A stretch of DNA of 64,000 nt, taken from positions 2,418,001-2,482,000 of the forward strand of contig CM059449.1 in the NCBI GenBank assembly GCA_030390025.1. Reading direction: 5' to 3'. The translations under genes were made by a program, and so were the position numbers. This DNA is from Squalus acanthias. Lineage: Eukaryota. Shown in pieces: positions 16,436 through 51,300 of this stretch. How positions within the stretch are numbered: position 1 is the first letter of the stretch; the number at the start of each line of letters is the position of its first letter. The notes below the pieces were generated by a model. That model made no database searches, was not told the DNA's origin, and was given only the letters and a program-made list of their open reading frames with translations.

Positions 16436-16775
16436 CAAACACACACAGTTTAAACAGATCCCGGTCATTGTTCCTCAGTTGTTTTCCAAGGTAGTCCGTC
16501 TCTATCTCATACACCCCATTGTCATCAAGTTGGACATTCTGTAGCTCAATAAAGCCATCGCGGTGGAACTGAACCCGGTGTTTGTAGTAAGGGTCAGAAT
16601 TCCAAGCCATGATTTTAAGATTGACCGGGATCTGCGTCTTTCATACTTTCTCATCGCTACGGTGATTTGATGGGAAACCTGATGTATTCGCCAATGGAGA
16701 GATTAGTGAGGAAGTTCAGGAAGGCTGGTGTTGCTGCTCTCCACAGTGTAATAGTGAAGTACTGGAATGGAACTT
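16436..16775 (-). pseudogene. Decayed Cys-less IgV-type exon (CEACAM/SLAM/HEPACAM-like N domain)
   Basis: YKHRVQFHRDGFIELQNVQLDDNGVYEIE...FKLCVF then phase-1 donor GTGAGT; upstream part has stop/frameshifts and abuts a CR1 tail. Confidence 0.6.
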
Positions 16776-25108: not shown

Positions 25109-25665
25109 CTACAAAGATACTTTGTCACCTCTAATGATTTGGAGAGGACAGATTTTCAGTGGTTCTGAGTTTTTGCCTCCTTGGTTCAATCCAGGACTGA
25201 ACAAAGGATACAGATCCCCACTGATAACAGTGCCTGTGTGGAGAAGAGACTGACTTTCAGGATTGTAAAATGAGAGTGTTTTTTCCTCACAGTCCAGGTA
25301 AACTCCAATCTTCTCTGGGATCTGTCTCGGGCTCAGACTGCGGAGGATTACACTTGAGCTGACAGCTTTGTACTCCTTCTCATCTTTCCGCAGCACAGCC
25401 CAGTACTCACTGTTGGGGGAAGCGGTAGTTGTGTTGTTCTCATCGACGGACTTCGTGGCAATGCCTATATCCCAGGCAGTCTTCACCCCCACCTCCACCT
25501 CCCAGTAATGTTTGCCTGATGCAAATCTGTCAGAACCCAGAACGCGTGGATAATGCTCAAACTTTTCCTCGGTGTCATGAGGCGTCTCTCGGTGGGTCAC
25601 GCTCCTCTTGTCCTCGGACACGTTTAACTCAGTGGGCGCTGTGCTCGAATCCATGGTTACTTTAG
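25109..25665 (-). CDS. Gene B B30.2/PRYSPRY terminal exon
   Basis: [10 protein letters not shown]...VSEDKRSV...[16 protein letters not shown]...IGVYLD...LYPLFSPG; acceptor tcatttag. Confidence 0.92.
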
Positions 25666-28600: not shown

Positions 28601-31600
28601 AGAATGAGAGGTGATCTTATTGAAACATATAAGATACTGAGGGGGCACGACAAGGTAGATGCAGAAAGGATGTTTACCCTCGTGGGGAAATCTAGAACGC
28701 GGGGGCACAGTTTTAGAATAAAGGGTCGCCCTTTTAGAACTGAGATGAGGAGGAATTTCTTCTCAGAGGGTCGTAAATCTGTGGAATTCTCTGCCCCAGA
28801 GAGCTGTGCAAGCTGGGTCATTAAATACATTTAAGGTAGAGATAGACAAATTTTTGCAAGGTAAGGGAGTGAAGGGTTATGGGGAGCGGGCGGGGAAGTG
28901 GCTTTGAGCCCAAGATCAGCCATGATCTTATTGAATGGCGGAGCAGGCTCGAGGGGCCAAGTGGCCTATTCCTGCTCCTATTTCTTATGGGAGGAAAATC
29001 TACAATACCAGTTTATGCACAGGTGGCAAACTGAACAACTGCCCTGTTCCTGGGGCTATTGGATCGCTCGGGCACAGTAAGTTCATGAAAATTGGCTTTT
29101 TTCCCTTTGTGAAGCACCTTGGGATGTTTTTCTATGTTCAGAGAGTTAATAAATGGAAGAACTGGTTACATCTACAAGATGCACTGCAGCACCTCGCCAA
29201 GGCTGCTTTATCAGCACCTCCCAAACCCACGAGCTCATCCACCTAGAAGGACAAGGGCAGCAGGCGCATAGGAACACCACCACCTCCAAGTTCCCCTCCA
29301 AGTCACACACCATCCTGACTTGGAAATATATCGCCGATCCTTCATCATCGTTGGGTCAAAATCCTGGAACTCCCTACCTAACAGCACTGTGGGAGTACCT
29401 TCACCACACGGACTGCAGTGGTTCAAGGCGGTGGCTCACCACCACCTTCTCAAGGACAATTAGTGATGGGCAATAAATGCTGGCCTTGCCAGCGATGCCC
29501 ACATCCAATAAACAGATTTTTAAAAATGAAGTAGACCAGCTCCTGACGAGAATTTCCCTGCTTCCACAATGAAGGAGTGGAATGAACAAATACACGGGGA
29601 AGATAATAATGAAAAACAGCGTCAATTTTGAAGCTCGATCAGCAAGAAAATTCCTAATATAGAAACACAGAAACCCCAGTAGAAAAAGGAGAACAGAAAA
29701 AAGCTGATGGTGATTTTATCACGTGGTGATGTATGTTTGGCCCGAGCACAATAGAAGTGTGAGTAACTGGATCAGAGTTGTGGCGATAATTTGCTCCTCA
29801 CCATATGGAGCAAGATCAACATGGGAGCTGGGGTAGATTTACTCTGGGTGATGTTTCTTGGGAAATGGTGAATGTTCTCAGGACATTTACAATTCTGTTA
29901 CAAATACTGAGCAGAGGAAATTTTTTCCACAATTCTTCACTGCTTGCTTCACATTGTGCCTGGGAGATAATGTCCCCAATAGGGACTGTTCATAGAATCA
30001 GACTTAATAAATGTTCATATCCAACTTCACCAAGGGCCCAATCATGAAACTTTCCCATCTCTCACGATACACGGCACCTTCCCTGCCTGTTTACCTCCTC
30101 ACCTCAGCAAAGTCTAATGGGCAAGTTATACTGCAGGGTGAGAGGGACTGTCAGACACGCGCTACACTGCAGGGATCTACATCACACTCGCTCAACAAAT
30201 GCAGTTACATTTTCACACCAGAAGCGAGTGGAAACAACAGTTTAAACTTAATTTTTTAATCTTTTAAAATTCTCAGTAGTCTTAACAAATCCTGTGATAA
30301 CTCTTCAAACTTCACTTCACACTGGACTATCTTTGCCCACTGAGGGGGAGGCCAGCTCCTCATCGCACTTGTGCTTCACGTGACTTTGAACACGATTAAT
30401 AGTTCACTGTTTGCTTCCATACCAGTGTTGGCCAATACATTAACCACTGGCCACATGCGGCTAATTGGGAATCTAAATGTGGCTAATTGCATATATGATC
30501 AGTAAATAAAAATAGGTAAGGGACACCATCGTTGGGCATGATCTTAATACTCATTTGCATAGCGTATGCATGTGTACTTCATCCTTTGTGCAGTTGTTGC
30601 TAAAATGGTAAGGGAGTGTGCGAGTGTTTTCTTTCATTGACTGTTTTACCTCCTTTTGTTATTGAATGGTGGTAGGTGTTTGTTACTAAATATCCTTGTG
30701 ATGTACATTTACCCGTATTGTGAGTGTATGTAGGGCATTTTCTACTAGAATTAGTCCATGTGACTAAAGCGGTGTCACCATTGCCACACCTAGCGGCCAG
30801 TCAGCGATTTCTATAGGACAACACTATTCTATACAAAGCAGTACTAACGAACCATACAGTATAACTTTCCGTCTGTGGCTACTTCACCTGATCTCTGGAA
30901 AACTACAGCCTTCAAGCATAATGGTTCCTGAGGAAACAGCACACACACACCACCCCTGAATTTCCTGGAGCCCCCCTCTACCACCAAGTGTAGTGGGTGG
31001 GACTTCCAGCTGCTCGTCTAGCTCGGGCTTAACCCCATTCCAAATCCTCAGGACAGGCTCAGTTACACAAAGGGGGATGGGAGCCTGCACCATTTACAGC
31101 TCTACCCCAGGTGCCTGCCCATGGAAGGCGAGTAATTGCACTTGATCACTCAGTCTGTCCGCCTGCAGTAAAGGGGGAACTGGCAGGATTCCTGTGGAGG
31201 CAAGTCATCCTGCCAACCTCACCTCTTCCAATGACATCACCGCAAAGGAGGAACTTCTTTCATCAGCCCTTTCTTGTAGGAATTTAACAAGGTGGGAAAA
31301 GGGGCGGAGTCCCCAAGGAACCAGGATCTGCCCCAGTTCTGCACCTCTTCCACCCGATTTGTACTTTTATTCCACCCTCAGAAAGTCAAAGAATTTCCGA
31401 GCCATCTTCTCCTTCAAGTGACTCTTCCACATGAATAGGGAGACATTTTCCCATTGCTGTGCCTGCGACTATCGGATTACATGGGTGCAGAAGAGATTTA
31501 CTAGAATGGTTTCAGGGATGATGAATTACAGTTACGTGGAGAGAATGGAGAACTGGTGGTGTTCTCTTTAGAGCAGAGAAGGCGAAGAGGAGATTTGATA

Positions 31601-34600
31601 GAGGTGTTTAAAATCATGAAGTGTTTAGAGTAAATAAAGAGAAACTTTCCAATGGCTGAAGGGTCGCTAACCAGAAGGCACAGATTTAAGGTGATTGGCA
31701 AAGGAACCAGAGGCAACATGAGGAAAAACTTTTTCATGCAACGAGTGGTTTGTATTTGGAGTGCACTGCCTGATAGGGTGGTGGATACAGATTCAATAGT
31801 AGCCTTCAAAAGGGAATTGGATAAAAATTTGAAGGGGAAGAAACTGCAGGGATATGGGAAAAGAGCGGGGATTGGGATTAACTGGATTGCTCTTCGAAAG
31901 AGCTGGCGCAGACTCGATGGGCCGAGTGGCCTCCTTCTGTGTTGTACTATTCTGTGATTCCACGATAGTTTCCTGGGTTACCCCTTTCCCCTTTCTTGTA
32001 CTTACAAACAAATCCTTTATAATCCACACTTTATCTTCACTGGTGGAATAATGTTTAACCCACTTTCAGAGCTGCCTTTCCTCTCCACACATCACTGTTT
32101 TGTAACACAAGTCCGTTTCTTTCAGAGGTGCTGTTCACGCATTAGTCAATAAAGATAACTGGCAGTTTCTGAACATTAACATCACACTGGTTAGTGATCA
32201 AAAGATTAATGAGTGGATTTCTTACCTGCAGAGTTTGTAATCCTTTTCCATTCTAGAAATGTAAAATCAAATGGTTATTTTCTGATCTGTTATAAACACC
32301 ACGGTCAATCATATTAATTGCACAGTTTTGGGTCATCAGTTCATTAGAATGAGAAATCTGTAAACCACTACTTACTGATGCTCTGACTGTTGACTTAATA
32401 TCCTTTTTAAATTTACATCTTGTATTTAGAGATCAAGGGCAGAATGTGTCACTTTTGACAAGAACTCAATCTTATTACAATTTTTAACTTAACTGTCGTC
32501 AATGTGAACAGGATAAACTGTGCAGAGAAATAATCTTGCAACAGGAGTAAAACAGGAAACTGGGGGGTGGGGTGTCTGAAGCACAAGCACTATTGGCAAA
32601 AGAGATGGTGAGGAAGTGGTAACAGGAAGTTACTGTTGCAAGAGCTAATTATATGTAGAGAGATAATAGGGTGGAGACGATTAAAAATGAACAAAACAAC
32701 AGAATATGTTTGGCAAATTGAAATGTGCATAATGGGGTTGCACAGAATGAAGAGAAGTGTAAACATTTATCACAATCACTAGAGTCAATGATTAATTAAA
32801 TAACATGCCTAATTCCTTATTGAAATGTCCTTTCCCCAGCTGAAATGTAAAAATGTCTAACTATGTAAAAAATCTTACCTGATATTTTAATTTGTGTCTT
32901 CAGCCCTACAAAAAAGACAGAATTTAGAATTACATGTCAAGTGAATAATATTTACTGGCAGTATTTGTTTACCAATATGGTATATTCTTCTGTGTGGAGA
33001 CTGGAGTCTCTCCATTTCTTGGTCCCTCGATTAATATTATCTGATACAGTCAAAGTTTGTGCAGTTCATATATTTTATGAGTGGTGTAAAGTGTATTTTC
33101 AGGCATGGATACTGGCCATATGCTTTATCAAGTGATGGGTGATGTATTCAAAGAGAAAAGGACAATGCATTTTATCAGAGAATTTTCTTGGTTCCGTTAC
33201 TGCATTAAAAAAAAATTGAGAAACCTGTGTGATGGATCAAAGCGCAATAGTGTGGGACACCAGGAAGGCAGAAACAGTAGAAGAAAATCAGGAAAAAATG
33301 CTTAAGGGACACCATGCTGGGGTTTTCAATCCTGGGAGATTCTGGTTAAAAAAAAGTATTACAGAAGTGAGGAGGTCCTGGGGAAAAATGAGATAATGAG
33401 ACCGTGCAATGAGTCTTGATTTACAAAGATGCAGGACGAGAAGGAATGGAGGAGACATGGGAGTTTCACCAGAGTTCAGTGAGACCAAGATATCAACAGA
33501 TGAAGAAGGACCAGGGGTGGAACCATCGAAGGTAATAGGCAGTCACTTACACTGGACATGAAGAATTGAAAGAAATGGGAATTTATTAATGAAAGCTGGT
33601 CGTGAAGCAGTGATCCAGCCATTGCACTGAGAGGAACAGAGGTGTGTGCGCTAAGGATATATGATGCAAGAGAAGTTGATCAATGTAGAGTGAAATAATC
33701 GGTAAGGAATGGATATGGTTGGATGATGTTTGGAGGAGTCATTGACGAGGAGAAGAGAGAGTGAGAGAGGGACTGGAGCCTTGAGGCACCCCTGAGTTAC
33801 TGGAGAGAGTCAAAGGTGAGTCTTCAACCACAGCATAGGTAGAGGAATTTGAGGGGAAACTACACAAGTGTTAACATAGGTGATGGGAGACCACATACTG
33901 CTGGTTTGTCCAGAAGTGCCTGGTGTTGGAACTGGTGAATGGTTTTGGAGATGTCTATAGTTTTGGAGATGTCTGCGGCAATAACAAATGAATCGTCAAA
34001 GCATTCAGGAACAGGAATGCAGAGGTGTTTAACAAGACTAGGTCATAAATAGAAGAATCATTCCAAAAACCACAGCGCAATCACAGATCAGACCAGGACT
34101 TACAAGGAGATCAAGGATTGAAGAGTTAATGGCAGCTTCTATAACTTTAGAAAGCTCTGATGCGAGGACAATATGTTGGTAGTTGTAAAATGGATATGGT
34201 AGCCTGGTGGTTATGGTACTGGACGAGCAACCCAGAGATCAGACTTCAAATCCCAGACGGCAAATTGTGAAATTAGGGAATTTGTGGGCTGGCACCAGAA
34301 AAAGGACCATGAGATCTGTTACACTGTTGTAAAAGTCTAACTGCTTCACTGATGTCCTTCAGCAAAGGGAAAGCTGCTGTTGTTACCGTACATGTGACTC
34401 CAGTCCCACACTATGTGGTTGGCTCTCAATACCTTCAGGGCAACTAAGGATGGGCTCACACCAATGAGAGAACAGTGCTCAGAACAGCCCTGTTCAAAGC
34501 TCCAGGACCACAAAGTTCAAACAGGTCAAAGCAGAAAATTACACAAGGACAAATGAGAATGACTTGTCTGAACATGGTGCGCTGAATTAGCAGGGCTGGG

Positions 34601-37600
34601 GGTGTGGGGCATAGGCTGGAATTTGGTCCCCTAAAAATCTCGAGTCTAATATTAACTGCTGTTCCCATCGTTACACCCCTTACAGACTGAGATTACATTT
34701 TTAAAATTGTACACACAGTTTGATACATTATATCCTCATCAGTAAATCCTAGCACACTCTGTATTAAATCTCAACTATTTATATTGCACCATAAAGAACT
34801 TGGATGTTCAATGTCGAGCAGTTACATGTTCTTACCTTGCAACAACTTCCTCTTCTTCAAGAACAAAATGATAATTGCCACAATGGTGATCAAGGTAATG
34901 AGAAAGATGATGATGAATGCAATTTGCCAGCCCGACAAACTTAGTTCCTTGGGGAACAGTTCACCTGCAAATTAACGCACCGCTGTGTGTAAATATCAAG
35001 GCAACACAGAAAATGTAAGACAGTTGCATTCGGGTTTGTTGCCTACTATTTAACAGGAGATAAGGTAACATTTAAGGTTCATTGACTCATTTTTAGATTG
35101 TACTTGCAGTTTGATACATTATATCCACATCAGTAAATCCTAGCACACTCTGTATTAAATCTCAACTATTTATATTGTACCATAAAGAACTTGGATGTTC
35201 AATGCCGAGGTACCAACGACATAGGTAGGACAAAGAAAGAGGTTCTGCTGAGGGAGTATGAGCAGCTAGGGGCTAAATTGAAAAGGTAATAATCTCTGGA
35301 TTACTACCTAAGCCATGTGCATATTGGTATAGAGTAAATAAGATCAGAGAGCTGAACGAGTGGCTCAAAGATTGGTGTGGGAGAAATGGGTTTTGATTCT
35401 TAGGGCACTGGCACCAGTACTGGAGTAGGATGGAGTTGTTCCGTCGGGACAGGCTTCACTTGAACCAGGTTGGGACCAGTGTCCTGGTGAATTGAATAAC
35501 TAGGGCTGTAGATAAGCTAAATCTAAAGTGGGGGGTTGGGGGGAGGGATCCGCTGAGCGGAAATTAAAAAAGTCAAAGAAAAATGAGAAGGCTAAAGTGC
35601 AGGGTTGCGATAGGGGTAATGATAAACAGAGTGTGACAGGAAGGGACAGAGCAAATACACAAGAGTGCATCAGAAAGAGGGGTCAGAGTAGGGAAAAATG
35701 GTAAAAAGACAAAATTAAAAGCTCTATATCTGAACGCACGCAGCATTCATAACAAGATAGATGAGCTGACAGCACAAATAGAAATAAATGGGTATGATCT
35801 GATAGCCATTACAGAGATGTGGTTGCAAGGTGAACAAGGCTGGGAACTGAATATTCAGGGGTATTTACCATTTCGTAAGATAGGCAGAAAGGAAAAGGAG
35901 GTGGTGTAGCTCTGCTAATCAGTAGTGAGAAATGATATTGGCTTAGAAGATCAAGACGTAGAATCAGTTTGGGTGGAGATAAGAAATAATAAGGGTAAGA
36001 AGTCACTGGTGCGAGTGGTCTACAGGCCCCCAAACAGTAGCTACACTGTAGGGCAGAGTATAAATCAAGAAATAATAGAGGCTTGTAAGAAAGATACGGC
36101 TATAATCATGGGAAATTTTAATCTTCATCTTGATTGGACAAAGCAAATTGGCAACGGTAGACTTGAGGAAGAGTTCTTAGAGTGTATGCAGGATGGATTC
36201 TTGGAACAATATGTTGTGCAACCAACCAGGGAGCAGACTATTTTAGATCTGGTAATGTGTAACGAGGCTGGATTAATTAATGATCTCGAAGTGAATGATC
36301 CTCTTGGGAAGAGTGATCATAGCATGGTAGAATTTCAAATTCAGTTTGAGGATGAGAAAGCTAGGTCTCAAACTAGTGTCCTGAACTTAAATAAAGGTAA
36401 TTACAAAGGTATGAAGGCAGACTTGGTTAAAGTGGACTGGGAAAATAAATTATAGGGTAAGACTGTAGAAAAGCATTGACAAATATTTAAGGAGATATTT
36501 CATAACTCTGAGCAAAGATATATTCCAGTGAGAAAGAAAGACTCTAAGAGAAGGATGAACCATCCGTGGCTAACTAAGGAAGTATAGGATGGTATCAAAT
36601 CGAAAACAAAGGCATACAATGTTGTGAAGAATAGTGGAAGGCCAGAGGATTGGGAAATTTTTAAAAACCAGTAAAGGACGACTAAAAAAATGATAGAGAA
36701 GATAGCTTATGAGAATAAGCTAGCAAGAAATATAAAAACAGACAGAAAGAGCTTCTGCAGGTATATAAAAAGAGAGTCTGGGGAATTAATAATGGGAAAC
36801 AGGGAAATGGCAGAGACTTTGAACAAATATTTTGTATCGTTCTTCACGGTAGAAGACACTAAAAGTATCCCAATAATGGATAATCAAGGGGCTGGTGGGG
36901 TGGTAAACTTAAAACAATCACTATCACGAGAGAAAAAGTACGAGGCAAACTAATGGGACTAAAGGTGAACAAGTCTCCTGGGCCCAATGGCCTGCATCCT
37001 AGAGTCTTAAAAGAGGTGGCTGCAGAGATAGTGGATGCATTGGTTCTAATCTACCAAAATTCCCTCGATTCTGGAGAGGTCCCAGCGGACTGGAAAACCG
37101 CAAATGTAACGCCCCTATTTAAGAAAGGAGGGAGACAGAAAGCAGGCAATTATAGGTCAGTTAGCCTAACATCTGTCATTGGGAAAATGCTGGAGTCCAT
37201 CATTAAGGAAGTGGTAGCAGGACATTTCGAAAATCATAATATAGTCAAGCAGAGTCAGCATGGTTTTATGAAAGGGAAATCATGTTTGACAAATTTGCTG
37301 GAGTTCTTTGAGGATGTAATGAGCAGGGCGGATAAAGGGGAACCAGTAGATGTCGTGTATTTGGATTTCCAGAAGGCATTCGATAAGGTGCCACATAAAA
37401 GGTTATTGCACAAGATAAGAGCTCATGGGGTTGGGGTAATATATTAGCATGGATAGAGGATTGGCTAACTAACAGAAAGTCGGGATAAATGGGTCATTTT
37501 CAGGTTGGCAAACTAACTAGTGGGGTGCCGCAGGGATCAGTGCTGGGGCCTCAACTATTTACAATCTATATTAATGACTTGGATAAAGGGACCGAATGTA

Positions 37601-40141
37601 ATGTAGTCAAATTTGCTGATGATACAAAGATAGGTGGGAAAGCAAATTGTGTGGAGGACGCAAAGAATCTCCAAAGGCTTATAGATAGGCTAAGTGAGTG
37701 AGCAAAAATCTGGCAGATGGAGTATAATGTGGGAAAATGCGAGGTTATCCACATTGGTAGGAAAAATAAAAAAGCAAATTATTTTTTAAATGGAGAGAGA
37801 TTACAAAATGCTGAAGTACAGAGGGATATAGGGGTCCTTGTACATGAATCACAAAAGGTTAGCATGCAGGTACAGCAAGTAATTAGGAAGGCAAATGGAA
37901 TGTTGGCCTTTATTGCAAAGGGAATGGAGTATAAAAGTAGGGAAGTTCTGTTACAACTGTACAGGGCGTTGGTGAGACCACACCTGGAGCACTGCGTGCA
38001 GTTTTGGTCTCCTTATTTAAGGAAGGATATACTTGCATTGGGGGCAGTTCAGAGAAGGTTCACAAGGTTGATTCTCGAGATGAAGGGTTGTCTTATGAAG
38101 AAAGGTTGAGCAAGTTGGGCCTATACTCATTGGAGTTTAGAAGAATGAGAGGTGACCTTCTTGAAACATATAAGATTCTGAAGGGACTTGACAGAGTAGA
38201 TGCAGAGAGGATGTTTCCCCTCGTGGGGGAATCTAGAACTAGGGGGCATAATTTCAGAATAAGGGGCACCCATTTAAAACGGAAATGAGGAATTTCTTCT
38301 CTCAGGGTCGTGAATCTTTGGAATTCTCTTCCCCAGAGAGCTGTGGAGGCTGGGTCATTGAATATATTGAAGGTGGAGATAGCCAGATTTTTGAATGGTA
38401 AGGGAGTCGAGGGTTATGGGGAGCAGGCAGGGAAGTGGAGTTGAGGCCAAGATCAGATCAGCCATGATGTTATTGAATGGCGGAGCAGGCTCGATGGGCC
38501 AAATGACCTACTCCTGCTCCTACGTCTTATGTTCTTATCTACACACAATTACATAAAGATATAGAAATAGAACCTGATGCTGCTGCTGTTCTCTCAAGTA
38601 TAACAAATTTAATAGTGGCAATTGAGAAGTGTTCTCATGGAAATCACCATACAACACCAACCAACGGCAATAAAGCCCCTTTGTAGTGGCTCACATAGTC
38701 CAACAGATCAACTACAGTCCTGGGCAGCTGGCCACCTGTCCATCGATTTACCCCGACTTTGGTTCCATTCACAAGTGAAAACAACACACTGCACTAAAAT
38801 TATTAATCGGTGTGTTTAATCTTGTTTGCTGACCTGATATTTGAATCACGGCCTCTCCCACAGTTTTCATTCCTTCGCTGTGCACAAGACAGGTGTATTT
38901 ATTTGTGGAATCCTTCGCTATGTCGATGTGACTGAGGACAGTGAAACCTCCCTTCGGATTCTCAGTTGCCTTAGAGTTGGATGAAGCCCGTTTGTTTCCA
39001 TTTCCATCTATCCACGATATTTGAAGGTTGGAGGACGAGCTATTGGTTTCACAGAGGAGTTGGATGTTTCTGCCCAGAAACCTGTCCATGCGAATAACAG
39101 GTTGGCTGCCAAGGGCTGAAATGTAAATTTTACAACAAGAAAATTTCATAAAACAAAATGCCTCTTATGGTAATGATCTCAGGATGCATTTATCCTGCAA
39201 CTTCTGCCTAAACTAAAACATTCTTTTGCTGATGTGTACGCTACACATTCTCACTTTTATTTTGTTGGGGGGGGGGGGGGGTGTAAATAAAAGAGACTTG
39301 CATACAATGTCACTCCAATTTTTTTGAGAGCTCGGCCCATTTATGGGTTGCGTGGCCCATTCCAATTTCCGTGCATATGCGGTTTTTCCCCATTGTAAAG
39401 CTGGCAAGCGGCCTGCGCGGGAACTCCAGACAGCTACACAGCTTACGGGAACATTGCTTCCATAAACATAGCCTGTTTCTCGACCGCGGGACATGCCAAA
39501 GTGCTTTACTTGGAAGCCAATGAAATACATTCCTGAAATACAGTCACTTTTAACGTAGGAAACGTGGCAGCCAATTTGCGCACAGCAAAAGCCCACAAAC
39601 AACAATGTGATAATGACCAGATAATCTGTTTTTAGCGTTGTTGGTTGAGGAATAAATATTGGCCCCAGGACACTGGGAGAACGCTCCTGCTCTTCTTCGA
39701 AGAGTGCCATGGTATCTTTTATGTCCACCTGAGGGCAGATGGAGCCTCGGTTTAACGTCACATCCAAAAGACAACACCTCCGACAGTGCAGCGCTCCCTC
39801 AGTACAGCACTGGAGTGCCAGCCTACATTATGTGCTCAAGTCTCCGGAGTGGGACTTGAACCCATGACCTTCACAGGAGAGAGCTCTACCCACTGAGCCA
39901 CGGCCAACACTGTAATTAACTGAATTTTTACATCATTGAGTCGAACTTCTCCAGGTACAAGAGACATCCTATAATTATGTAATACAACATGAACAAAGTC
40001 AGTGAAGCTACTGTTAAAGAACACAACCTGTGTAGAATGTCAAAACATAGAAATATTACCGAGAAAGAGAGATTGCTCACCAGATACTGGACCACAAACA
40101 AGGAACAGACCGAGAAGGAGAGTTCCACACTCCATTTTCAT
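25109..40141 (-). CDS. Butyrophilin-like gene B (leader-IgC-TM-coil-B30.2, no IgV), 360 aa, 6 coding exons
   Basis: Exons (minus) 40081-40141, 38834-39115, 34836-34964, 32879-32905, 32226-32252, 25109-25665. All GT-AG phase 1; total 1083 nt, open frame. Confidence 0.82.
26700..28990 (+). mobile_element. CR1 LINE ORF2 (endonuclease to 3' end) with internal deletion at ~28020
   Basis: IMGDFN, LDLVL, SDH endonuclease motifs; DKSP jumps to FTIYIND region. Confidence 0.92.
31480..31960 (+). mobile_element. CR1 3' fragment
   Basis: TRRHRFKV...[10 protein letters not shown]. Confidence 0.85.
32226..32252 (-). CDS. Gene B 27-nt microexon (EWKRITNSA)
   Basis: tttctag|27 nt|gtaaga; counterpart of gene A EWKGITMFP. 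Confidence 0.82.
32879..32905 (-). CDS. Gene B 27-nt microexon (GLKTQIKIS)
   Basis: ttttgtag|27 nt|gtaaga; counterpart of gene A DLQEQLILS. Confidence 0.78.
34195..34455 (+). mobile_element. tRNA-derived SINE (relative at 51408-~51690)
   Basis: atggtagcctggtggttatggtactggac...ttcaaatccc head. Confidence 0.55.
34836..34964 (-). CDS. Gene B transmembrane exon
   Basis: [43 protein letters not shown]; 129 nt, tttgcag/gtaaga. Confidence 0.9.
35210..38540 (+). mobile_element. CR1 LINE, ORF1 end plus near-complete decayed ORF2, in gene B IgC-TM intron
   Basis: Endonuclease and RT motifs across ORFs 35925-38288; 3' tail. Confidence 0.94.
38834..39115 (-). CDS. Gene B IgC exon
   Basis: [11 protein letters not shown]...IQLLC...ISW...YTCLVH...VIQIS; 282 nt, phase 1-1. 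Confidence 0.87.
39490..39912 (-). mobile_element. tRNA-derived SINE (SacSINE/DeuSINE-like) in gene B leader-IgC intron
   Basis: Homologous to 15800-16270; A and B boxes. Confidence 0.8.
40081..40141 (-). CDS. Gene B signal-peptide exon ([20 protein letters not shown])
   Basis: Acceptor tttgcag at 40146-47, ATG 40141 (alternative 40135), donor GTGAGC at 40080. Confidence 0.75.
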
Positions 40142-40637
40142 AACTCTGCAAATTCAAAATAAAATGCAATTATTTGAGTGAATTGTCTCAGTACATTCTT
40201 CACAAGCTGGATAAAATCTGACTGGGAAACCGACTGAAGATTATATGGGATTGCTTGGATGTAAATGTCATTCTCAGGTGTCCATACTACAACCCTCAAG
40301 GCTGCCCAGGGACTACCACAAGGCCCACCAGCCCTGGTTCTGGTCCACAATTTCTCAGACATGAACTCACTGCTTGTGCTGAGCAAAAGGCTGCCGTGTG
40401 AAAATGCGGAAATGATTGAAGATCCGGAATAACAGAAAACGCTGCAAAAACTCAGCAGGCCAGGCCCTGTCGCTTCCAATGAACCCGCTTCCAAAGTTAA
40501 ATTAAAAAAGCGGGCGCTTCAGTAAAAGAAGCCCCGTCCCACCGGACTCAGGACAACTTGATGTGGAAAGGTTCCTGGGGCTGGGCTCACTTCAGCAGAC
40601 GGAGCGGCCCCCAAATGTACCGCAGCATCAAATGTGG

Positions 40638-40860
40638 GGAAAGGCCGGGGGCGGGAGCCGAGCTCCGGACACCTCCCGGGGGAAAAGCCGGGAGCGGGGG
40701 CGGGAGCCGAGCTCCGGACACCTCCCGGGGGAAAGGGCGGGGGCGGGGGCGGGGGCCGAGCTCCGGACACCTCCCGGGGGAAAGGGCGGGGGCGGGGGCC
40801 GAGCTCCGGACACCTCCCGGGGGAAAGGGCGGGGGCGGGAGCCGAGCTCCGGACACCTAC
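40638..40860. repeat. GC-rich ~43-49 bp minisatellite, ~5 copies
   Basis: gggcggg(a/g)gccgagctccggacacctcccgggggaaa. Confidence 0.92.
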
Positions 40861-41160
40861 CGGGTAAGATGTCCCAGGACGGGTGACAATCGGCGCTTTG
40901 CTCCAATTCAGGCCGCACCCACCGGAAGGGCAGGAAAGTGAAAGTGCTTTTGAGCAGCGAGTTTGAGGCGGGGCGTTTTGTTCGGCGGAGAACGGCGGGA
41001 AATTTGGGCGCAGACAGGTTGGTGCCATTGCATTGAGGGGGTGGAATGGGGGGAGAATGGGAGAGGGAGTGCGGCCCCCGGCTGGGCTCCTTCCTCACAC
41101 CCAGGAGCCGGACTGGAGCAGCTCCGGGCCCAGCCGTACCCTCCCCTACCCCGGGTTACA
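40861..41160 (-). promoter_or_regulatory. CpG-rich promoter and probable non-coding exon 1 of gene B, with IRF element and ETS site
   Basis: GGAAAGTGAAAGTG at 40933-40946, CCGGAAG at 40922, GC boxes; minus-strand donor CCG|GTAGGT at 40860. Confidence 0.6.
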
Positions 41161-42030
41161 GAAACAGTGAGGGTTGTAGGGCTGGAGGAGGTTACAGAGA
41201 TAGGGAGGGTTGTAGGGCTGGAGGAGGTTACAGAAATAAGGAGGGTTGTAGGGCTGGAGGAGGTTACAGAAATAAGGAGGGTTGTAGGGCTGGAGGAGGT
41301 TACAGAGCTCGGGAGGGTTGTAGGGGGTTACAGAGACAGGGAGGGTTGTAGGGGGTTACAGAGACAGGGAGGGTTGTAGGGGGTTACAGAGACAGGGAGG
41401 ATTGTAGGGGGTTACAGAGACAGGGAGGGTTGTTGGGGGTTACAGAGACAGGGAGGGTTGTAGGGCTGGAGGAGGTTACAGAGACGGGGAGGGTTGTAGG
41501 GCCGGCGTAGGTTACAGAGACGGGGAGGGTTGTAAGATTGGAGGAGGTTTCAGAGATAGGGAGGGTTGTAGGGCGGGTTGTAGTGCTACAGGTGGTTACA
41601 GAGATAGGGAGGGTTGTAAGGATGCAGGAGTTTAGAGAGATAGGGAGGGGCGAGCGCTGGAGGATGTTAGAGATTGGGAGGGCTGTAAGTCTGGGGTGGG
41701 GGTGGGGGTGGGGCTGGGATTTTACAGAGATAGGGAGGGGAGATACCGTGGAGTAATTTGAAAAGAAGAATGAGAGTTTTAAAATCGAGGCGTTGCTGGA
41801 CCGGCAGCCAATGTATGTCAGTCAGATGATGGGGTGATTGGAACTTGGTGCGATTTACGATACGGGCAGCAGAGTTTTGAATTAGTTCAAGTTTATGGAG
41901 GGTGGAAGATTGGAGGCTGGGAGGAGGTAGGGGCACCGAGATCTCAGAGGGTTGTAGGGCAGGAGGCATTTACAGAGGTGGGGAGAGGCGAGGCCCTGGG
42001 ATTTGAAAAGAAGGGTGACAGTTTTAAAAC
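41153..42030. repeat. 27/36-bp purine-rich tandem expansion within an L2-like repeat (relative at 7075-7730)
   Basis: gagggttgtagggctggaggaggttacagagatagg units. Confidence 0.85.
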
Positions 42031-42966
42031 AGATAAATGAGAATTGTTGGCACTAATCTATATGGCAACTTGGATAGATTCCCGTTGTATCTTACAATTA
42101 ATTCCTTCCGCTCACCGTATCCCATTGTTCCAGGTGTTGCATCGAGTGCATTAAATCCCCAGACATGTCCTCCAAAAACGCATCATCCATAAAAAGGAAG
42201 TTAATTATTGTAATAAATCTGAGTGACCATAATTAAGAAAAGCTCCACGTGAGTGCTTATGATGATTTCAATGAGGTAATATTTCCAGCATTGCTGAATT
42301 TCAAAACAGAAAATGCTGGAATTTCACAGTCCATTTATCACCATCTGAAAAGAGAAAAGACAGGTTAAAGTTTTCGGCAGAGTTCCTTCATCTGACAGTG
42401 GTGTAAAATCACACGCTCCAAATGCTGTCCGTTACATACTGACAGACATAGTTCCAGAGGTATGGGGCATCTCCAAACATGACCGCTGCCTTGGCAGTCA
42501 TGATGCTTGCTTCACTGAAGCACTCTCTCCTCCTCCAACCTCCCCCAGTTCAGAAAAGCAATTCAGAGCCGGTGCTCTTCTCCTTCCCTCTCAGTTCACA
42601 CTGGCACTCCCTCCTGTTCCCACTTGATGCTGGGGCAGCATTCTCACCGCCCACTGCCAATTTGTGCTGGCACTTTTCTCCCTCAATTGCATTTCATTCA
42701 GTTTTGCTGTGGAGATAAAACAAAATCGGGACCGTTCCCTTTATACTTTAGTGGATACTTTAGAAAGTGCTCAACAGCCGATGCCGCGGAGCTGCGTTAG
42801 TGAAAGCTGTTCTGTTTGTTTAAAGGTTTTACAGTAACAAGAACTCAGCTGTTGCTGTATCAATAGAAGGAATCCCAGGAATTTCTGTTCTTGTAAAACT
42901 CGTCTGTGTCCATAGATGGCGCTGCTGCACTGTTTCTCTAAACAGAGCCACCCACTCAGTGGCTAG

Positions 42967-43710
42967 ATTGGCCCAGGTTTTGCTGTACTGATAATGGCGA
43001 GGCTGTCAGTGCTCACCATTATTACAGGGTAAAACTGACAGCAACCTCTGGCTTCTACACATGCGCAGTTAAACGAGGAAATTGCTGTCAGTGATACCCT
43101 GCTTCTCCACAGGCTGTGCTGTTGCAGTCTTCGCCAATGGAATCTGCACAGAGATCACTGTAATGGCGTGAACTTAGGCTAATTACGCACTATTCTCGCT
43201 CTAAAGACAGATGAAAAAGTTAGGGCTTGTACAATCAGGAGTATCTCAGTTTTTAACAGCATAATAAGTGATAATTCCAGCTGAACAACCTCTCTGGCCC
43301 TGAAAACTTAATTTTACAGGTGTACAGTCTCATTCCCTCAAGAAAATCAATGGAGCAGATTTTTTAAAACAATTTTTAAACAGTTTTTCTGTTTTTCTCT
43401 TAAACCCGTGTGTATGTTCCAATTTTTATTTTGTTCCTGTACAATGATTTGAATGTAATGTATATTTCCTGTTTTCTACTTCCTGCTTTGCAGTCTGCGT
43501 GTCTCAGGGAGGATTCTTCAATCTGATTGGTTGAAGAGCCTCCCTGTTGTTTGCTCTGCTCACAGATTCCCGGTAGAGTGCACCGCACTGGATCAGACAC
43601 CCGTCGACAGGAAATCTCTGCTGACAAGCCCGTGAAAAGTCTCTGGGCAACTGTACATGAGGTGAACAGTGAAAGCCTTTCCTTTGCTGCTCAGCAAAAT
43701 CCGGGCCAAT
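42967..43710. mobile_element. Non-autonomous DNA transposon/MITE
   Basis: TIRs attggcccaggttttgctg / cagcaaaatccgggccaat (17/19 match). Confidence 0.65.
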
Positions 43711-43894
43711 GAGAATAACATGGACAGAAATTCTTGGGAACAAAAGGCTAAAAAACTGTAAATGCTGGAAATCTGAAACATCTGGAAACACTCACCAGGT
43801 TAGGCAACGTCTGTGATGTGTGCTTTTCCTCATTGTCCTGCAGTGAAATATGGTACAAATCTACAGAAAACACAGGGTGCTGTTTAATTCAAGA

Positions 43895-44322
43895 TGGCAT
43901 AGTGGTTAGCACTGGTGCCTCACAGCGCCAGGGACCCGGGTTCGAATCTGGCCTCGGGTGACTGTCTGTGTGGAGTTTGCACATTCTCCCCGTGTCTGCG
44001 TGGGTTTCCTCCGGATGCTCCGGTTTCCTCCCACAGTCCAAAAATGTGCGGGTTAGGTTGATTTGGCTATGATAAATTGACCCTTAGTGTTAGGGGGGGA
44101 TTAAATATGTGGGGTTACGGGGATAGGATGGGATATGTTAGGGGGAATTAAATACGTGGGGTTACGGGGATAGGGTGGGATATGTGTCGGTGCAGGCTCG
44201 ATGGGGATTCTGTGTGAGAAAGCAGGGACAGGGTACTGGATTTGGATGATCAGCCATGATCGTATTGAATGGTGGAGCAGGCTCGACGGGCCGAATGGCC
44301 TACTCCTGCTCCTAGTTTCTAT
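43895..44322 (+). mobile_element. HE1-like V-SINE with CR1-derived tail
   Basis: tRNA head, V-domain tgtgtggagtttgcacattctccccgtgtctgcgtgggtttcctccgg, CR1 3' UTR. Confidence 0.85.
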
Positions 44323-45261
44323 CTTGGGCTTCAGCTGGCCCCAGACAAAAATAGCTCGGTTGGACTGAACAGGTAGAAGACTTGAAATATTTCCCTCTGT
44401 CACACAGAAAATTACAAACCAGAATCCAGGTCGGCAGTGCCATTCAGCTCACTGAGCCTGCTCCACCATTTTGTTAGTAATAATATCTTTTTAATCTCAA
44501 TATTCCTCTGTTTCTCCATATCTTGCCATACTCACTAGGTAAGTAACTATCTGCCTTTTAAACACCTCACCTAATTCTGTGGTTCTGTCCTTCTGGAACA
44601 CTATATTCCTCATTCTAGCATCCTTTGTGTGAATTTTTCCCCCATGGACTTGTTTTTAATTGTTTATTTCCAATTGTAAGATTGCCCCTTGTTTTAGAAT
44701 CCCCAGCAGTCAGAAACTCGTCCCTTGTCTACCCTGTCATTCCCTTCATTATTTAAAACACGTTGATCATATCATCCTCTAACTGTATCTCCAGAGAATA
44801 GATCCTGAATTCACCCAGTCTCTTATGATGACTCAGTCCCTTCGTCCCACAGCTCACCCTGGTCAATTACCACTGTACTTTCTCCAAGACAGTGTATCTT
44901 TCCTATTGTTCCTGTAGTCATTCATTTATTACTCTGATCAGTGAGCAGCACTGATTACTGGATAGATCCCCACACATTTCTGCAACACACTGAAATAAAA
45001 CATCAGAGTCACGCTGTTATTTTAATGAAAACTTACTCGCCGGCCAGACAGCTTTGAATGAAGAGAGTTCTTCAGCCTGTTCTCTTTATCTTTCTGGAAT
45101 ACCAGCCCTGCCTTCTTCCTGTTGCAGCATCCAGCTGTTTCTTCCTTTCACATCAAGATATGAGAATTATTGTCAGTGATATGAAAAGGGTGTTAATAAT
45201 GCAGCATGAAAACAATGGGTGACTGATCCAGGTAACTCTGATCTAATTTACAGGGTCCACA

Positions 45262-45319
45262 ATGGAGAATCGCTTACTGGCGTCATTCCTATTGTTACAG
45301 ATTCAGATTACAGCAGCAG
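45262..45319 (+). CDS. Gene A signal-peptide exon (MENRLLASFLLLQIQITAA)
   Basis: Acceptor tttacag at 45253, ATG 45262, donor GTAAGA at 45320; hydrophobic leader. Confidence 0.85.
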
Positions 45320-48300
45320 GTAAGAGACTGGGTTAAAGGCATGGAATCTGGATTATCTGTATAATGTGTGCTGTGACAGTATTTAAATGCTATTCATTCT
45401 TCACTTACAGGAGACTTCGAAGTGACCGGTGCAGACAGCCCAGTACTAGTGACCATGGGTAGTAGCGTCACGCTGAACTGTTGGGTCACACCGAGCTTTG
45501 ACCCTCTGAGTATGGAACTGGAATGGTTAAAAGCAGATACCCGAGAAACTGTAGTTTTAGTTATAAATGGACGCAGTCGTGCAAAGTCAAGGAACTACCA
45601 TGGAAGGACTGAGCTCTTTACGGACAAATTGATTCAGGGAAATATCTCTCTCCGTCTAAGCAATGTCCGTATCTCCGATGAGGGTAAATACAGATGCATC
45701 GTGAGCACCAGTTCCTGGGGACATGCAGGAGATGCAGAACTAACAGTAGCCGGTAGGTATTGATGCAGAGAACTGATTCTGTGAATATAATCACCAAAAA
45801 TTATTCAGAAATTGACATCCCCGTGTAAAATGTCTTTTTAATTAATTTCTAAACAGAGAATACCAACATTGATTCTTAACTGTTGTTGCTGCTTCAGTTT
45901 GAGTACATGGAGTTAATGTTCCGTATTGTGATTGGATTGTGGAGGGAATGAAACCGTGCTCGATCCGTTCACTCTCATTCTGAACAATCACTCTCGGGAA
46001 CACTGGGGATCTTCTACATCTCAATCTGTACAGTGCTCACTGTGGGTGTAGATTCACTGTAGAATGTGTCACTGGGACTCTGGACCAACACTTTATCTCA
46101 TGGCCTGAGATTCCCTCCTCCTCCTCCTCCGATCACAAGATAATTACAGATGAGGAAGGCCGTTCCACCCATTTTATTTGAACTAGAAAGACCCTAACTT
46201 CCCCCATTGGGCCTCCAATTGCTTCTTAAACCTCTCCAGGGTTTTCTCCTCCCCCACTCTGTCCAGAGTCCATTCCATGTGTTGATCACTCTTTGTTTGA
46301 TGAACTGGCTGTTACCAGTCTCACATTTACCTTTTACTAGTTTGAACCTGTGTACACTTGTCCCACTCTCACAATTTAAAGTAATATTTCAGCTTTACCT
46401 TTTCAGTTCCTTTAACTACCTATATCTACCTCGACAAGGTCCCCTCTCAGAAGCCTCCTTTCCAGGTGCAAATCCCAGCTTTTTCCAGTCTTTTCCCGTC
46501 ACTCAGACCCCTGACACTGGGGATGAGTCTGGTGGATCTTCTCCGATCTGCCTCCAGTGTTCAAATGTCTCCCTTGTTTCTCAATGGCCAGAACTGGACA
46601 CTGTATTCAAGGTGGGCTCTGACCAGAGCACCGTGCAGTTTGATCATTTGGGGGGTGGGGGGAGAGGATGTTGCTCATTTTCCCTTATGAATACTTCAAG
46701 GAAATGATAATTCAGAATATTTCCTATTTTGTGCTTGCCCCCAGTTCTGATATTGTTTGAATCATTTATAGTTTACACCGATTCTCTGACATTCCTGCCA
46801 CTGCTGTAGGACTGAGGTTTATTTACTGTAATGTTTCACTTCAGCTGCTGTGTATATTCCGAGACCTCTCCTGGCCCTTCTCATCACCTGCTGAAGGTGT
46901 TTCAGCACATTCCTATATTCATCCCAGTGAATCGCTTCTCCTTTCTCCCAGCAGGATTTGTAGCCATTTCTCCTCTTATTTCACTTCAATCTCTTTGTTA
47001 ATCCATTGAGGATCAAGTGTGTTTAGCCTTAGCTTCTGATTTCAGATCCTCACCGTGTTGGGAGTCCGAGTCACCCACTGAGTCTGACTGTAACTCATTC
47101 TTTCCCAGGACTGCAGAGCTGTAGAACTCCTGGCCTCCCTCAGCTTTCTCCTCCTACAATCTACGGCTTTTAAAAACTCAAGTGTGGCCTCCCCTGATCA
47201 CAGCTTCATGATTTGCATCCTCTCTAGTCTGTTCTGTACCCTGGTGGAGGCCTCCTGTCTGGGCCTTGGCCCTTCACACCCGTTCGGCAACAATATCAAA
47301 ATGAGGCCTCCCAAAAAAAAACTTCAAATGATCTGGAGAAAGTAGAAAGAGACAAATTCCAAACGTTCACATTCTCCGGTATCTGTTAATGCCTCGTGGG
47401 AGCAGTTTTCAGGCCTAAATATTGGGAGTCACCAAGATTGGGGGAATGTGGACACTTGTGCATTTAACCAGATGTCTAAATACCTTTTTAATACAGGAAA
47501 ACTGGTTTGATAGATTTCTACAGCACAGACGAAGGCCATTCGGCCCATCGTGTCTGTGCCAGCTCTCTGAAAGAGCGATCCAATTAGTCCCACTCCGCCG
47601 CTCTTTCCCCATAGCCGATTGGCCCACTCCTGCTCCTGTTTCTTGTGCCCTGCAATCTTTTCCTTTTCAAGTATTGAGCTGAATACATTTTGAAAGTTTC
47701 TATTGAATCTGCTTCCACCCCCCCTTTCAGGCAACGCATTCCAGAACATCATAACTCGCTGCATAACAAAAAATTCTCTTCATTTCCCCTCTGTTACTTT
47801 GCCAATTACCTTTCCATCAGTGTTCTCTGGTTACTGACCCTCCAGCCAGTGAAAACAGCTTCTCCTGACTTACTCTGATCAAAAACCCTTATAATTTTGA
47901 ACTCCTCGATCAAATCTCCCCATAACCTTTTTGCTCTAAGGAGAACAAGCCCAGCTTTTCTAGTCTCTCCACATAACTGAATTCCCTCATCCCTGGTGCC
48001 ATTCCAGTAAATCTCCTCTGCACCCTCTCCAAGGTCTTGACATGTTTCCTAAAGTGTGATACCCTGAATTGGATACAATTTTCCAGCTGAGGCCTAACCC
48101 GTGTTTTATAAAGGTTTAGCATAACTTGCTTGCTTTTGTACTCTATGCCTCTAATTATAAAGCCAAGGCTCCCGTATACTTTTTTTTAACAGGCTTATTA
48201 GCTTGTCCTGCAACCCTCAAGGATTTGCGTATGTGAACCCCAGGTTTCTCTAATCCGGTACCCCCTTGAAAATTGCAAGACTTTTAAAATTGCCTCTCCT

Positions 48301-51300
48301 CATTCATCCTTCCGCAATGCATCACTTCACACTTCTCTGTTTTAAAGTGCATCTGCCATGTGTCTGCCCATCTCACCAGTCTGTCGATGTCCTCCTGAAG
48401 TCTTCTTCTATCCTTCTCACTAGATTTCCGAGATTTGTGTCCTCTCCAAACTTTGAAATGATGCCCTTTATATCCAAGTCCAGGTCATTAATATATTTCA
48501 AAAAGAGCAGTGGTCCCAACCCCGACCCCTGGGGCCACCACTTGCCTCCAGTCTCTAAAGCAACCGTTCACCACTACTGTCTGCTTTCCATTCCTTGGCC
48601 AATTTCATATCCATACAGCCCCTTCCCCTTTAATCCCATGTGCTTCAATTTTGCTATGAAGTCTAACATGTACTTTATCAAACGCCTTTTGAAATTCCAT
48701 ATACACAGTATCAACTGCACTACCCTCATCAACCCTCTCCATTATTTCATCAAAGAACTCAATCAAGTTAGTCAGATCCATTATTCAAGAAGGGTAGTAG
48801 GGATAAACCAGGGAATTACAGGCCAGTGAGCCTAACATCAGTGGTAGGGAAATTATTGGAAAAAATTCTGAGGGACAGAATTAGTCTGCACTTGGAGAGT
48901 AAAGGATTAATCAAGGATAGTCAGCATGGCTTAGTCAGGGGGAGATCATGTCTGACCAATTTGATTGAATTTTTCGAGGGAGTGACTAGGTGTGTGGATG
49001 AGGGTAGTGCAGTTGATGTGGTCTACATGGACTTCAGTAAGGCTTTTGACAAAGTCCCGCATGGGAGACTGGTCAAGAAGGTAAGAGCCCATGGGATCCA
49101 GGGCAACTTGGCACATTGGATCCAAAATTGGCTTAGTGGCAGGAGGCAGAGGGTGATGGTCGAAGATTGTTTTTGTGACTGGAAGCCTGTGTCCAGTGGT
49201 GTACCGCAGGGATCGGTGCTGGGTGCCTTGCTGTTTGTAGTGTACATTAATGATTTAGATATGAATGTAGGAGGTATGATCAGTAAGTTCGCAGATGACA
49301 CGAAAATTGGTGGGGTGGTAAATAGCGAGGAGGGAAGCCTCAGGCTACAGGACGATATAGACGGGTTGGTCAGATGGGCAGAACAGTGGCAAATGGAATT
49401 TAACCCTGAAAAGTGTGAGGTGATGCATTTTGGGAGGACTAACAAGGCAAGGGAATACACAATGAATGGTAGGACCCGAGGAAGGACAGAGGATCAGACG
49501 GACCTTGGTGTGCATGTACATAGATCCCTGAAGGCAGCAGGACAGCTAGATAAGGTGGTTAAAAAGGCATATGGGATACTTGCCTTCATTAGCCGAGGCA
49601 TAGAATATAAGAGCAGGGAGGTTATAATGGAGCTGTACAAAATGCTAGTTAGGCCAAAGCTGGAATACTGTGTGCAGTTCTGGTCGCCACACTATAGGAG
49701 GGATATGATTGCATTGGAGAGGGCGCAGAGGAGATTCACCAGGATGTTACCTGGGCTGCAGCGCTTCAGCTATGAAGAGAGACTGGACAGGCTGGGGTTG
49801 TTTTCCTTAGAGCAGAGAAGGCTGAGAGGGGACCTGATTGAGGTGTACAAAATTATGAGGGGCATAGATCAGGTAGATAGAAAGGAACTTTTCCCCTTAG
49901 TAGAGGGGTCAATAACCAGGGGGCATAGTTTCAAGGTAAGGGGCAGGAGGTTTAGAGGGGATTTGAGGAAAAACTTTTTCACCCAGAGGGTGGTTGGAAG
50001 CTGGAACTCACTGCCTGAAAGGGCGGTAGAGGCAGGAACCCTCACAACATTCAAGAAGCATTTAGATGAGCACTTGAAACGCCATAGCATACAAGGCTAC
50101 GGACCAAGTGCTGGAAAATGGGATTAGAATAGACAGGGCTTGATGGCCGGCGCGGACACGATGGGCCGAAGGGCCTCTTTCTGTGCTGTATAACTCTATG
50201 ACTCTATGAGATGCGATTTGCCTTTAACAAATCTGTGCCGGCTCTCCTTTATTGACCCATATTTTTCCAAGTGCCAAGTAATTTTGTCCCGAATTATTGT
50301 GTCTCAAAGTTTCCCCACCACCGACGTTAGGCTGACTGGCCTGTAATTGCCAGGTTTTTCCTCTCCCCTTTTTTGAATAGGGTGTAACATCTGCAACCCT
50401 GCAGTCCTCTGGCACCACTCCCATATCTAAGGAGGATTGGAAGATTGTGGCCAGAGCCTCCGCAATTTCCACCCTTCCTTCCCTCAGCAACTTAGGGTGC
50501 ATCCCACCCGGACCAGGTGACTTTTGTACTTTGATCGCTGACAACCATTTATGAACTCTTAATTTATTTTTATCCTATCCAATATCGCTATTGCCTCCTC
50601 CTTTACTGCGACATTGGCAGCATCCTCCTCTCTAGTGAAGACAGATGCAAGGTACTCATTTAATAGCTCAGCCATGCCCTCTGCCTCCACAGGAAGATCT
50701 CCTTTTTGGTCCCTAATTGGCCCCACCCTTCTCTTGACTACCCTTTTTATAAAAGACTTCAGTGCTCCCTTTTCTGTTATCTGCTAATCTATTCTCATAC
50801 ACCCTCTTTGCCCCTTTTATTTCCTTTTTCAGTTCTCCTCTGCACTTTCTGTATTCGGCTTGGTTCCCTACTGTATTAAGAACCTGACATTTATCACAAG
50901 CCTCCTGTTACTGTTTCAGTTTAACCTCAATGTCTTTAGTCATCCAGGAAGCTGTAGCTTTGGATGCCCTTACGTTCGCCCTGATAAGAATGTGTCCAGT
51001 CTGTACCTGAACTAGCTCCTCCTTGAAGGCCTCCCACTGCTCATTTACTGTTTTACCTGCCAATCATTGTCTCCAATCCACCTTGGCCAGACCCCTTTTC
51101 AGCTGACTGAAATGAACCCTCTTCCAGTTGGGTATCTTCACTTTTGATTGTTCCTTGTCTCTTTCCCATTCTCAACCTAATCATATTGTTTCCATTACTG
51201 TAATTGGAACTGAATTGGTTCCAGTCACACACATCAGAATCTGAAATATAAAAGTTTGTTAATACGCACAGATTAATATTTCTGCCAGTGAGCATGAATT

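Follow-up and report, generated by a model that had tools for sequence, protein, structure and literature searches.

The window analyzed here, a 64,000-nucleotide stretch of the Squalus acanthias genome (assembly GCA_030390025.1, contig CM059449.1, positions 2,418,001 to 2,482,000 of the forward strand), contains a small butyrophilin (BTN) cluster in which two genes, designated A and B, lie on opposite strands. Gene A encodes a complete butyrophilin; gene B, the subject of this analysis, encodes a butyrophilin without an IgV domain. Gene B runs on the minus strand from 40141 to 25109 in six coding exons, which form a frame of 1083 nt (360 aa) with a single stop; the introns are GT-AG throughout and all in phase 1. 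The encoded domain order is signal peptide, IgC, transmembrane (TM) segment, short juxtamembrane helix, and B30.2. The original prediction, made from the sequence alone, assigned the gene to 38834–40930, which is too short, given that the gene reaches down to 25109. Its placement of the leader exon (40081–40141) 965 bp from the IgC exon was accurate, and the open 360-aa frame it obtained by splicing leader to IgC was confirmed. The parts of gene B are as follows:

40371–40537, minus strand: non-coding exon 1 (extending at least to 40537), covered with 0 differences by a transcript contig from run X2 that ends at the donor, and joined to the leader exon (joint 40145/40374) in X1 and X5.
40081–40145, minus strand: leader exon (61 nt coding, ATG at 40141), with a predicted 21-aa signal peptide (19/21 residues identical in both orthologues); bounded by transcript joints.
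39116–40080, minus strand: GT-AG intron of 965 nt at the position where a V exon would be expected, with a repeat resembling a short interspersed nuclear element (SINE) at 39468–39913 and no V remnant.
38834–39115, minus strand: IgC exon (282 nt), with a BC loop SSxSSNL replacing GWYPxP and an invariant FG loop; supported by PF22705, AlphaFold, and Foldseek.
34836–34964, minus strand: stalk and TM exon, 129 nt; joint 34962/38832 in 4/4 runs.
32879–32905, minus strand: juxtamembrane exon 1, 27 nt; joint in 4/4 runs.
32226–32252, minus strand: juxtamembrane exon 2, 27 nt; joint 32252/32879 in 4/4 runs.
25109–25665, minus strand: acidic B30.2 (PRY-SPRY) exon with the stop; PF13765 and PF00622, junction placed by orthologue alignment, exon present in the runs.

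The IgC exon matches the BTN IgC family in Pfam (PF22705, E 2.6e-9, above cut-off) and falls below cut-off against the V-set family (E 0.16), and the last exon matches both PRY (PF13765) and SPRY (PF00622). An AlphaFold model of the IgC domain has a seven-strand fold (predicted local distance difference test, pLDDT, 89.4), for which the top structures in Foldseek were BTN2A1, BTN1A1, and BTN3A (template-modelling score about 0.8), and the first match in an atlas search was a BTN2A1-like IgC (0.95). The model of the orthologous protein from Heterodontus francisci comprises an IgC domain, a single helix (125–171), and a folded B30.2 domain (pLDDT 84.9), and a basic cluster follows the TM segment in the gene B protein. 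Gene B thus has the BTN/B7-type IgC and, from the PRY/SPRY matches and the Heterodontus model, the TM helix and cytoplasmic B30.2 layout of butyrophilins; the canonical N-terminal IgV is missing. Gene B therefore belongs to the butyrophilin lineage as a derived form without V, outside the canonical V-C-TM-B30.2 type. A 93% inverted copy of part of its last intron (28174–29722) occupies positions 1–1502; it could be the trace of a rearrangement breakpoint or of a B paralogue lying outside the window.

A hidden or decayed V exon in gene B was looked for with Pfam, with similarity searches, and with a V-specific profile, and none was found. In the region 39116–45400, upstream of the IgC exon, 0/76 stop-to-stop frames of at least 45 aa matched an Ig family in Pfam at E up to 10. 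A hidden Markov model (HMM) was built from 94 related V domains and searched without filters, with X in place of stops; its top scores were −0.6 bits in the intron and −1.1 bits upstream, whereas the V domain of gene A scores 116 bits. As a tblastn and blastn query, the gene A V domain matched only itself in the window. A 204-aa open frame in the intron (39216–39827) was rejected as a V domain, having no Pfam match and consisting mostly of repeat. The intron had been described beforehand as SINE and poly-G sequence with no V motif, and this holds: the repeat at 39468–39913 has an 80% copy at 15823–16269 and very high read depth, a G run is present on the plus strand, and the HMM finds no V. 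Elsewhere in the window, an open frame on the minus strand (16398–16637) resembles the V-set family weakly (E 0.005, below cut-off) but is unlike a BTN V domain; it may belong to a different Ig-superfamily gene situated between the BTN copies.

Public sequencing runs contain the leader-to-IgC splice. The last exon of gene B with its 3' flank is carried by 11 runs, four of which, from three studies, were mapped on 32100–40620. These runs are not on record as RNA (8/11 labels are guessed); we take them as RNA because they contain spliced joints at CT..AC ends. Their contigs carry no strand, start, or level information and rare forms drop out, and the joints and loose ends considered are the best 15 of 74 and 24 of 1451, respectively. 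The joint 39115/40081 (skip of 965, CT..AC) is present in 4/4 mapped runs and all three studies; the shorter arm of the joint spans 65, 65, 30, and 32 letters in these runs. The IgC-to-TM joint, the joint from TM to the first 27-nt exon, and that between the two 27-nt exons were likewise each seen in all four, and an X1 contig of 946 nt includes the IgC and TM exons with no differences. The V exon is absent from gene B and from its mRNA. In a correction to the original prediction, the leader exon is not the first exon: the non-coding exon ending at 40371 splices to 40145 and extends toward a CpG-rich stretch at 40501–41000, which is the likely promoter region. Runs X2 and X9 have a variant 27-nt exon (32879–32905) and a change at 39010 (I56K in IgC), and X1 and X5 have several indels in the 5' non-coding exon (40371–40510); these differences point to divergent alleles or to a closely related paralogue.

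Among 58 candidates, the IgC of gene B has two close relatives, from H. francisci (XP_067865452.1, 347 aa) and Pristiophorus japonicus (366 aa). Both orthologues have the order leader, IgC, TM, B30.2 and are V-less, and both bear the database name ERMAP-like (RefSeq/UniRef). The gene B frame is unbroken in all three species, with pairwise identities of 68–77% for IgC and 66–77% for B30.2. For gene A in the same three species the values are 64–72% for V, 79–82% for C, and 68–72% for B30.2; because the protein identities of the two genes are similar, gene B does not appear to be decaying. The B proteins form a clade with support of 100/99 in an IgC tree (44 rows), 100/93 in a B30.2 tree (36 rows), and 100/100 in a combined tree (24 rows), and share an invariant B30.2 loop, VLRKDExEYKA. 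No orthologue of gene B surfaced in other sharks or rays, which, in a word-based search with 50% clustering, is weak evidence. An N-glycosylation sequon (N45) in the new BC loop was rejected as a conserved feature of that loop, as it is missing from both orthologues. Heterodontus belongs to the Galeomorphii and Pristiophorus to the Squalomorphii, and because both clades have orthologues, loss of V probably came before living sharks diverged, over 200 million years ago. The prediction that gene B is a C-only butyrophilin is therefore upheld by the frame, the orthologues, the transcript joint, and the V HMM.

The IgC domain of gene B has been remodelled where it would face a V domain. As originally noted, its GWYPxP loop is replaced while both Cys and the Trp of the fold are retained. 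We compared 107 BTN-type C domains scoring >40 bits (two unparsed; isoforms uncollapsed), drawn from matches to genes B and A: the Trp of GWYPxP is kept in 102/105 and W-x-P in 96, and the three domains without the loop Trp are those of gene B and its two orthologues. Since the loop likely packs against V, its loss fits a permanent loss of V; most simply, the loop had no further role after V was gone. The GWYPxP loop may correspond to a Phe-Pro pair of antibodies. In antibodies, that pair is described as the ball of the VH-CH1 joint (PMC6963682). The new BC loop ends in SSNLQI, which is invariant in 3/3 B proteins, as is the FG loop close by; the exposed top of the domain is thus under a new constraint of some kind. 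A Callorhinchus gene model (XP_042200830.1; P0086) consists of leader, IgC, and TM with no V and has the loop GWSSQP; it groups with a V-bearing Callorhinchus BTN (100/96) and not with gene B, and, if the model is right, is possibly an independent V loss with partial decay of the loop.

The original prediction also raised the possibility of an intracellular sensor, which in the BTN3A1 phosphoantigen sense is not borne out. The basic B30.2 pocket of BTN3A1 is formed by H351, H378, K393, R412, R418, and R469 (PMC4303140). In a by-eye mapping, the corresponding residues in gene B are Y, D, T, K, I, and S (1/6 basic), and those in gene A are W, F, R, A, S, and N. The B30.2 domain of gene B is net acidic (20 K+R against 26 D+E). 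Gene B is thus not predicted to be a phosphoantigen sensor of the BTN3A1 type. Among solved structures, the orthologue B30.2 matched pyrin and TRIM21 best (126 bits), with lower scores for BTN2A1 (117) and BTN3A1 (103).

Gene A lies head-to-head with gene B, with the two ATGs (45262 and 40141) 5.1 kb apart. The features of gene A and of the shared region are as follows:

45262–61113, plus strand: gene A, complete butyrophilin, 477 aa; orthologues P0096 and P0121.
45262–45319, plus strand: gene A leader exon.
45411–45752, plus strand: gene A V exon.
51999–52283, plus strand: gene A C exon.
52432–52581, plus strand: gene A TM exon.
56655–56681 and 57218–57244, plus strand: gene A 27-nt exons.
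60569–61113, plus strand: gene A B30.2 exon.
40330–40380, plus strand: stretch similar to the extended N-terminus of gene A as modelled in Pristiophorus; it lies antisense to intron 1/exon 1 of gene B.
40501–41000, no strand assigned: CpG-rich stretch, GC 0.67, CpG observed/expected 0.84, with a 43-bp tandem repeat; putative promoter.

Close relatives of gene A were likewise found only in Heterodontus and Pristiophorus (2/6 matches among 2338 candidates), together with a Heterodontus TM-B30.2 copy, so that, in the searches made, the close relatives of A and those of B come from one and the same pair of named species. Gene A resembles gene B in having two 27-nt juxtamembrane exons, and the stalk FPxExxxS[GS]W is lengthened in 6/6 rows of A and B proteins and in 0/16 of the other BTNs listed; this shared stalk suggests that A and B are sister paralogues. 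In Pristiophorus, the gene A model is extended by 33 residues at its N-terminus, and tblastn places this extension best at 40330–40380 on the plus strand (E 0.028), across the first donor of gene B; 0/300 shuffles reached this score on the plus strand of 39116–45260. A splice acceptor lies just ahead of the ATG in the gene A leader exon, and a simple donor-site scan located no upstream donor for gene A. The stretch 40330–40380 is likely to be part of an upstream exon of gene A, and the arrangement points to a head-to-head pair that has been conserved and whose 5' ends overlap.

The upstream region shared by A and B includes a GC-rich 43-bp tandem repeat in five copies (40636–40864) and a 28/36-bp repeat array (41154–41650). 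The plus strand at 2733–15253 is a 98–99% copy of 51510–63855, that is, of gene A from about 490 bp before IgC to past B30.2, with 0–3 differences per exon. Its 5' flank (1–2732) is unlike the V-C intron of gene A and no V was seen there; either a partial duplication without V or an assembly or haplotype duplicate could account for the copy. The Heterodontus copy (XP_067865953.1; P0124), which bears the name TRIM39-like, is related to gene A but consists of TM and B30.2 and lacks an Ig domain; its contig is equal in size to those of the Heterodontus A and B orthologues.

V-less butyrophilin forms have precedents from which gene B differs. With the classical BTNs (BTN1A1, BTN2A1, BTN3A1/3A3, and BTNL3/BTNL8), gene B shares a BTN-type IgC, a TM segment, small phase-1 juxtamembrane exons, a B30.2 domain, and membership of a paralogue cluster, but it has no IgV in gene or mRNA, its GWYPxP is replaced, its juxtamembrane region is short (two 27-nt exons), and the phosphoantigen pocket is absent. 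Skint proteins are not known to have a B30.2 domain. Mouse Skint9 is a BTN-family gene that, like gene B, is reported to lack IgV (PMC6017450), and V-skipped isoforms of ordinary BTNs are annotated, so that the earlier generalization about single-Ig relatives keeping V does not cover all cases. Skint proteins, however, are reported to have several TM segments (three for SKINT1; PMC4382165) and to be confined to placental mammals (PMC5960712), whereas gene B has a single TM exon followed by B30.2, and shark orthologues. ERMAP has a single Ig domain, a TM segment, B30.2, and a length similar to that of gene B, but its Ig domain is an IgV without IgC (PMC6017450); the single Ig domain of gene B and both orthologues is an IgC. 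The database name is thus misleading. In Scyliorhinus torazame, a BTN3A1-like isoform (X2; P0087) skips V and has the order leader, IgC, TM, B30.2, as in gene B, but its gene keeps V (X1; P0117) and the isoform retains WYPAP, neither of which is the case in gene B. An atlas cluster named BTNL8 isoform 3 (339 aa) appears to be a similar form, judged from its length and the families listed. The closest counterpart in domain order (leader, IgC, TM, juxtamembrane, B30.2) is an engineered V-deleted BTN3A1 (PMC10665462), which is artificial, human, and phosphoantigen-binding, whereas gene B is natural and V-less at the level of the gene, with a remodelled IgC and no phosphoantigen pocket. Open-access literature searches found no description of a shark V-less BTN, and the main text of a phylogenomic account that includes shark BTNs does not mention such forms, although its supplement (Figure S2 tree) could bear on the matter (PMC12841164). 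V-less forms as such have precedents, but a gene-level, loop-remodelled IgC-TM-B30.2 form that both shark clades have retained, next to a complete putative partner, was not encountered in the literature searched.

We favor the interpretation, to which we assign a probability of about 0.5, that gene B encodes a natural V-less heterodimer partner of gene A. The chaperone or regulatory partner originally suggested is retained here as a subunit, from the head-to-head neighbor, the shared distribution, and a retained dimer-edge residue; the pairing itself is proposed by analogy with mammalian BTN3A. BTN3A chains are reported to pair through IgC, with pairing governing surface delivery (PMC5798315), and a V-deleted BTN3A1 is not delivered to the surface alone; full-length 3A2 or 3A3 restores its delivery, and stimulation is then good, with the sensing B30.2 and the contacting V on separate chains (PMC10665462). 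In an analogous system, the product of gene B, which lacks the V exon, would span the membrane in type I orientation, a folded BTN-type IgC being followed by one long TM-plus-juxtamembrane helix and B30.2, and its V-facing loop would have been replaced since no V packs on it. A and B would be co-transcribed from the shared region, with overlapping 5' ends, and would pair via IgC edge strands and juxtamembrane helices. A would provide the single V for outside contact (a γδ T-cell receptor, TCR, or another ligand) and help B to reach the surface; B would provide a different, acidic B30.2 for a cytosolic partner other than phosphoantigen. One IgC-IgC contact position in mammals is V154 of BTN3A1 and M153 of BTN2A1 (PMC7083227); by-eye mapping places it at M30 of gene B, invariant in 3/3 B proteins within an invariant SQPVIRM strand, and places a second (S236/F235) at Q, Q or E in the B proteins. 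More tentatively, the two genes may form an ancient shark module with overlapping 5' ends, encoding an obligate asymmetric heterodimer in which B senses inside and A makes contact outside.

Several observations weigh against a heterodimer of A and B. IgC domains contact one another over a small area, mostly through main-chain atoms, and retention of one residue is therefore a poor guide to which partner is chosen. The IgC of B is somewhat less conserved than that of A (68–77% versus 79–82%). The A and B proteins each form solid clades, but the IgC, B30.2, and combined trees neither support nor contradict their sisterhood. The TM exon of gene A is 7 residues longer, with the gap just past the membrane, and the two B30.2 domains would therefore be offset by one heptad. 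Equal contig sizes (74,466,956) for the Heterodontus A and B proteins do not prove adjacency there; the match to the Pristiophorus extension is short, and 5/100 shuffles reached its score over the whole window; and the mapped stretch of the transcript runs covers gene B only, short of its last junction and of gene A. The invariant loops of the B IgC also fit a surface with its own ligand.

This last point bears on the alternative that B is an autonomous receptor, as monomer or homodimer, with the top of IgC (the new BC loop and the FG loop) as ligand surface and B30.2 signalling. The invariance of those loops in all three orthologues, with the ancestral motif gone, is what such a receptor would predict; the IgC is predicted to fold well alone, and squamates keep BTNs without a γδ TCR, suggesting other ligands (PMC12841164). 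A single Ig domain would, however, extend only a short way from the membrane, V-deleted BTN3A does not reach the surface alone (PMC10665462), and neither the head-to-head linkage nor the matching distribution with A is needed, which makes an autonomous receptor unlikely. We consider still less likely that B pairs with A as a brake, lowering the number of V domains per dimer or causing retention in the endoplasmic reticulum (ER), and so damping T-cell activation. The evidence for pairing would be the same as for the heterodimer favored here, V-deleted 3A2 with 3A1 reaches the surface and adds no stimulation (PMC10665462), and ER association regulates BTN heteromers (PMC5798315), for which the basic cluster after the TM segment of B may be relevant; but a pure decoy needs no B30.2 kept at 66–77% with an invariant VLRKDExEYKA. 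Less probable again is a role independent of A as a membrane anchor for a TRIM/pyrin-like cytosolic B30.2, in scaffolding, secretion, or pathogen sensing (compare BTN1A1 with xanthine oxidoreductase), with IgC serving only for folding: the precedence of pyrin and TRIM21 over BTN2A1 and BTN3A1 among B30.2 matches and the Ig-less Heterodontus relative of A would fit such a role, but the IgC is as conserved as B30.2, beyond expectation for a vestigial domain. That gene B is a decaying duplicate, or its V-less model an assembly or splicing artefact, is already largely refuted and very improbable, since the loss of the loop motif, the lack of orthologues in other annotated sharks and rays in the searches made, the segmental duplicates in the window, and the selection of the best joints and loose ends are outweighed by an unbroken frame and a shared domain layout in three species across both shark clades, spliced joints in three studies, rates similar to those of A, and no V sequence at the locus.

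The roles of BTNs beyond a few mammals are largely unexplored (PMC12841164). The IgV domain is the part of a butyrophilin that touches γδ TCRs, and gene B has dropped it yet is intact in both shark clades, a feature that ERMAP-like database names conceal. For the function of the GWYPxP loop, a natural test series is available, in which the loop is kept (the V-skipping Scyliorhinus isoform), half lost (the holocephalan model), or wholly lost (gene B). If the more tentative module reading is true, the holocephalan V-less BTN with its half-decayed loop would represent a second, independent origin, and genes A and B would be a natural version of a division of labor known only from engineered human BTN3A, for a signal other than phosphoantigen. 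Together they offer a compact two-gene system in which to ask whether split-role BTN heterodimers are ancestral and what a non-mammalian B30.2 senses, and, under that reading, would be a candidate ligand system for shark γδ T cells.

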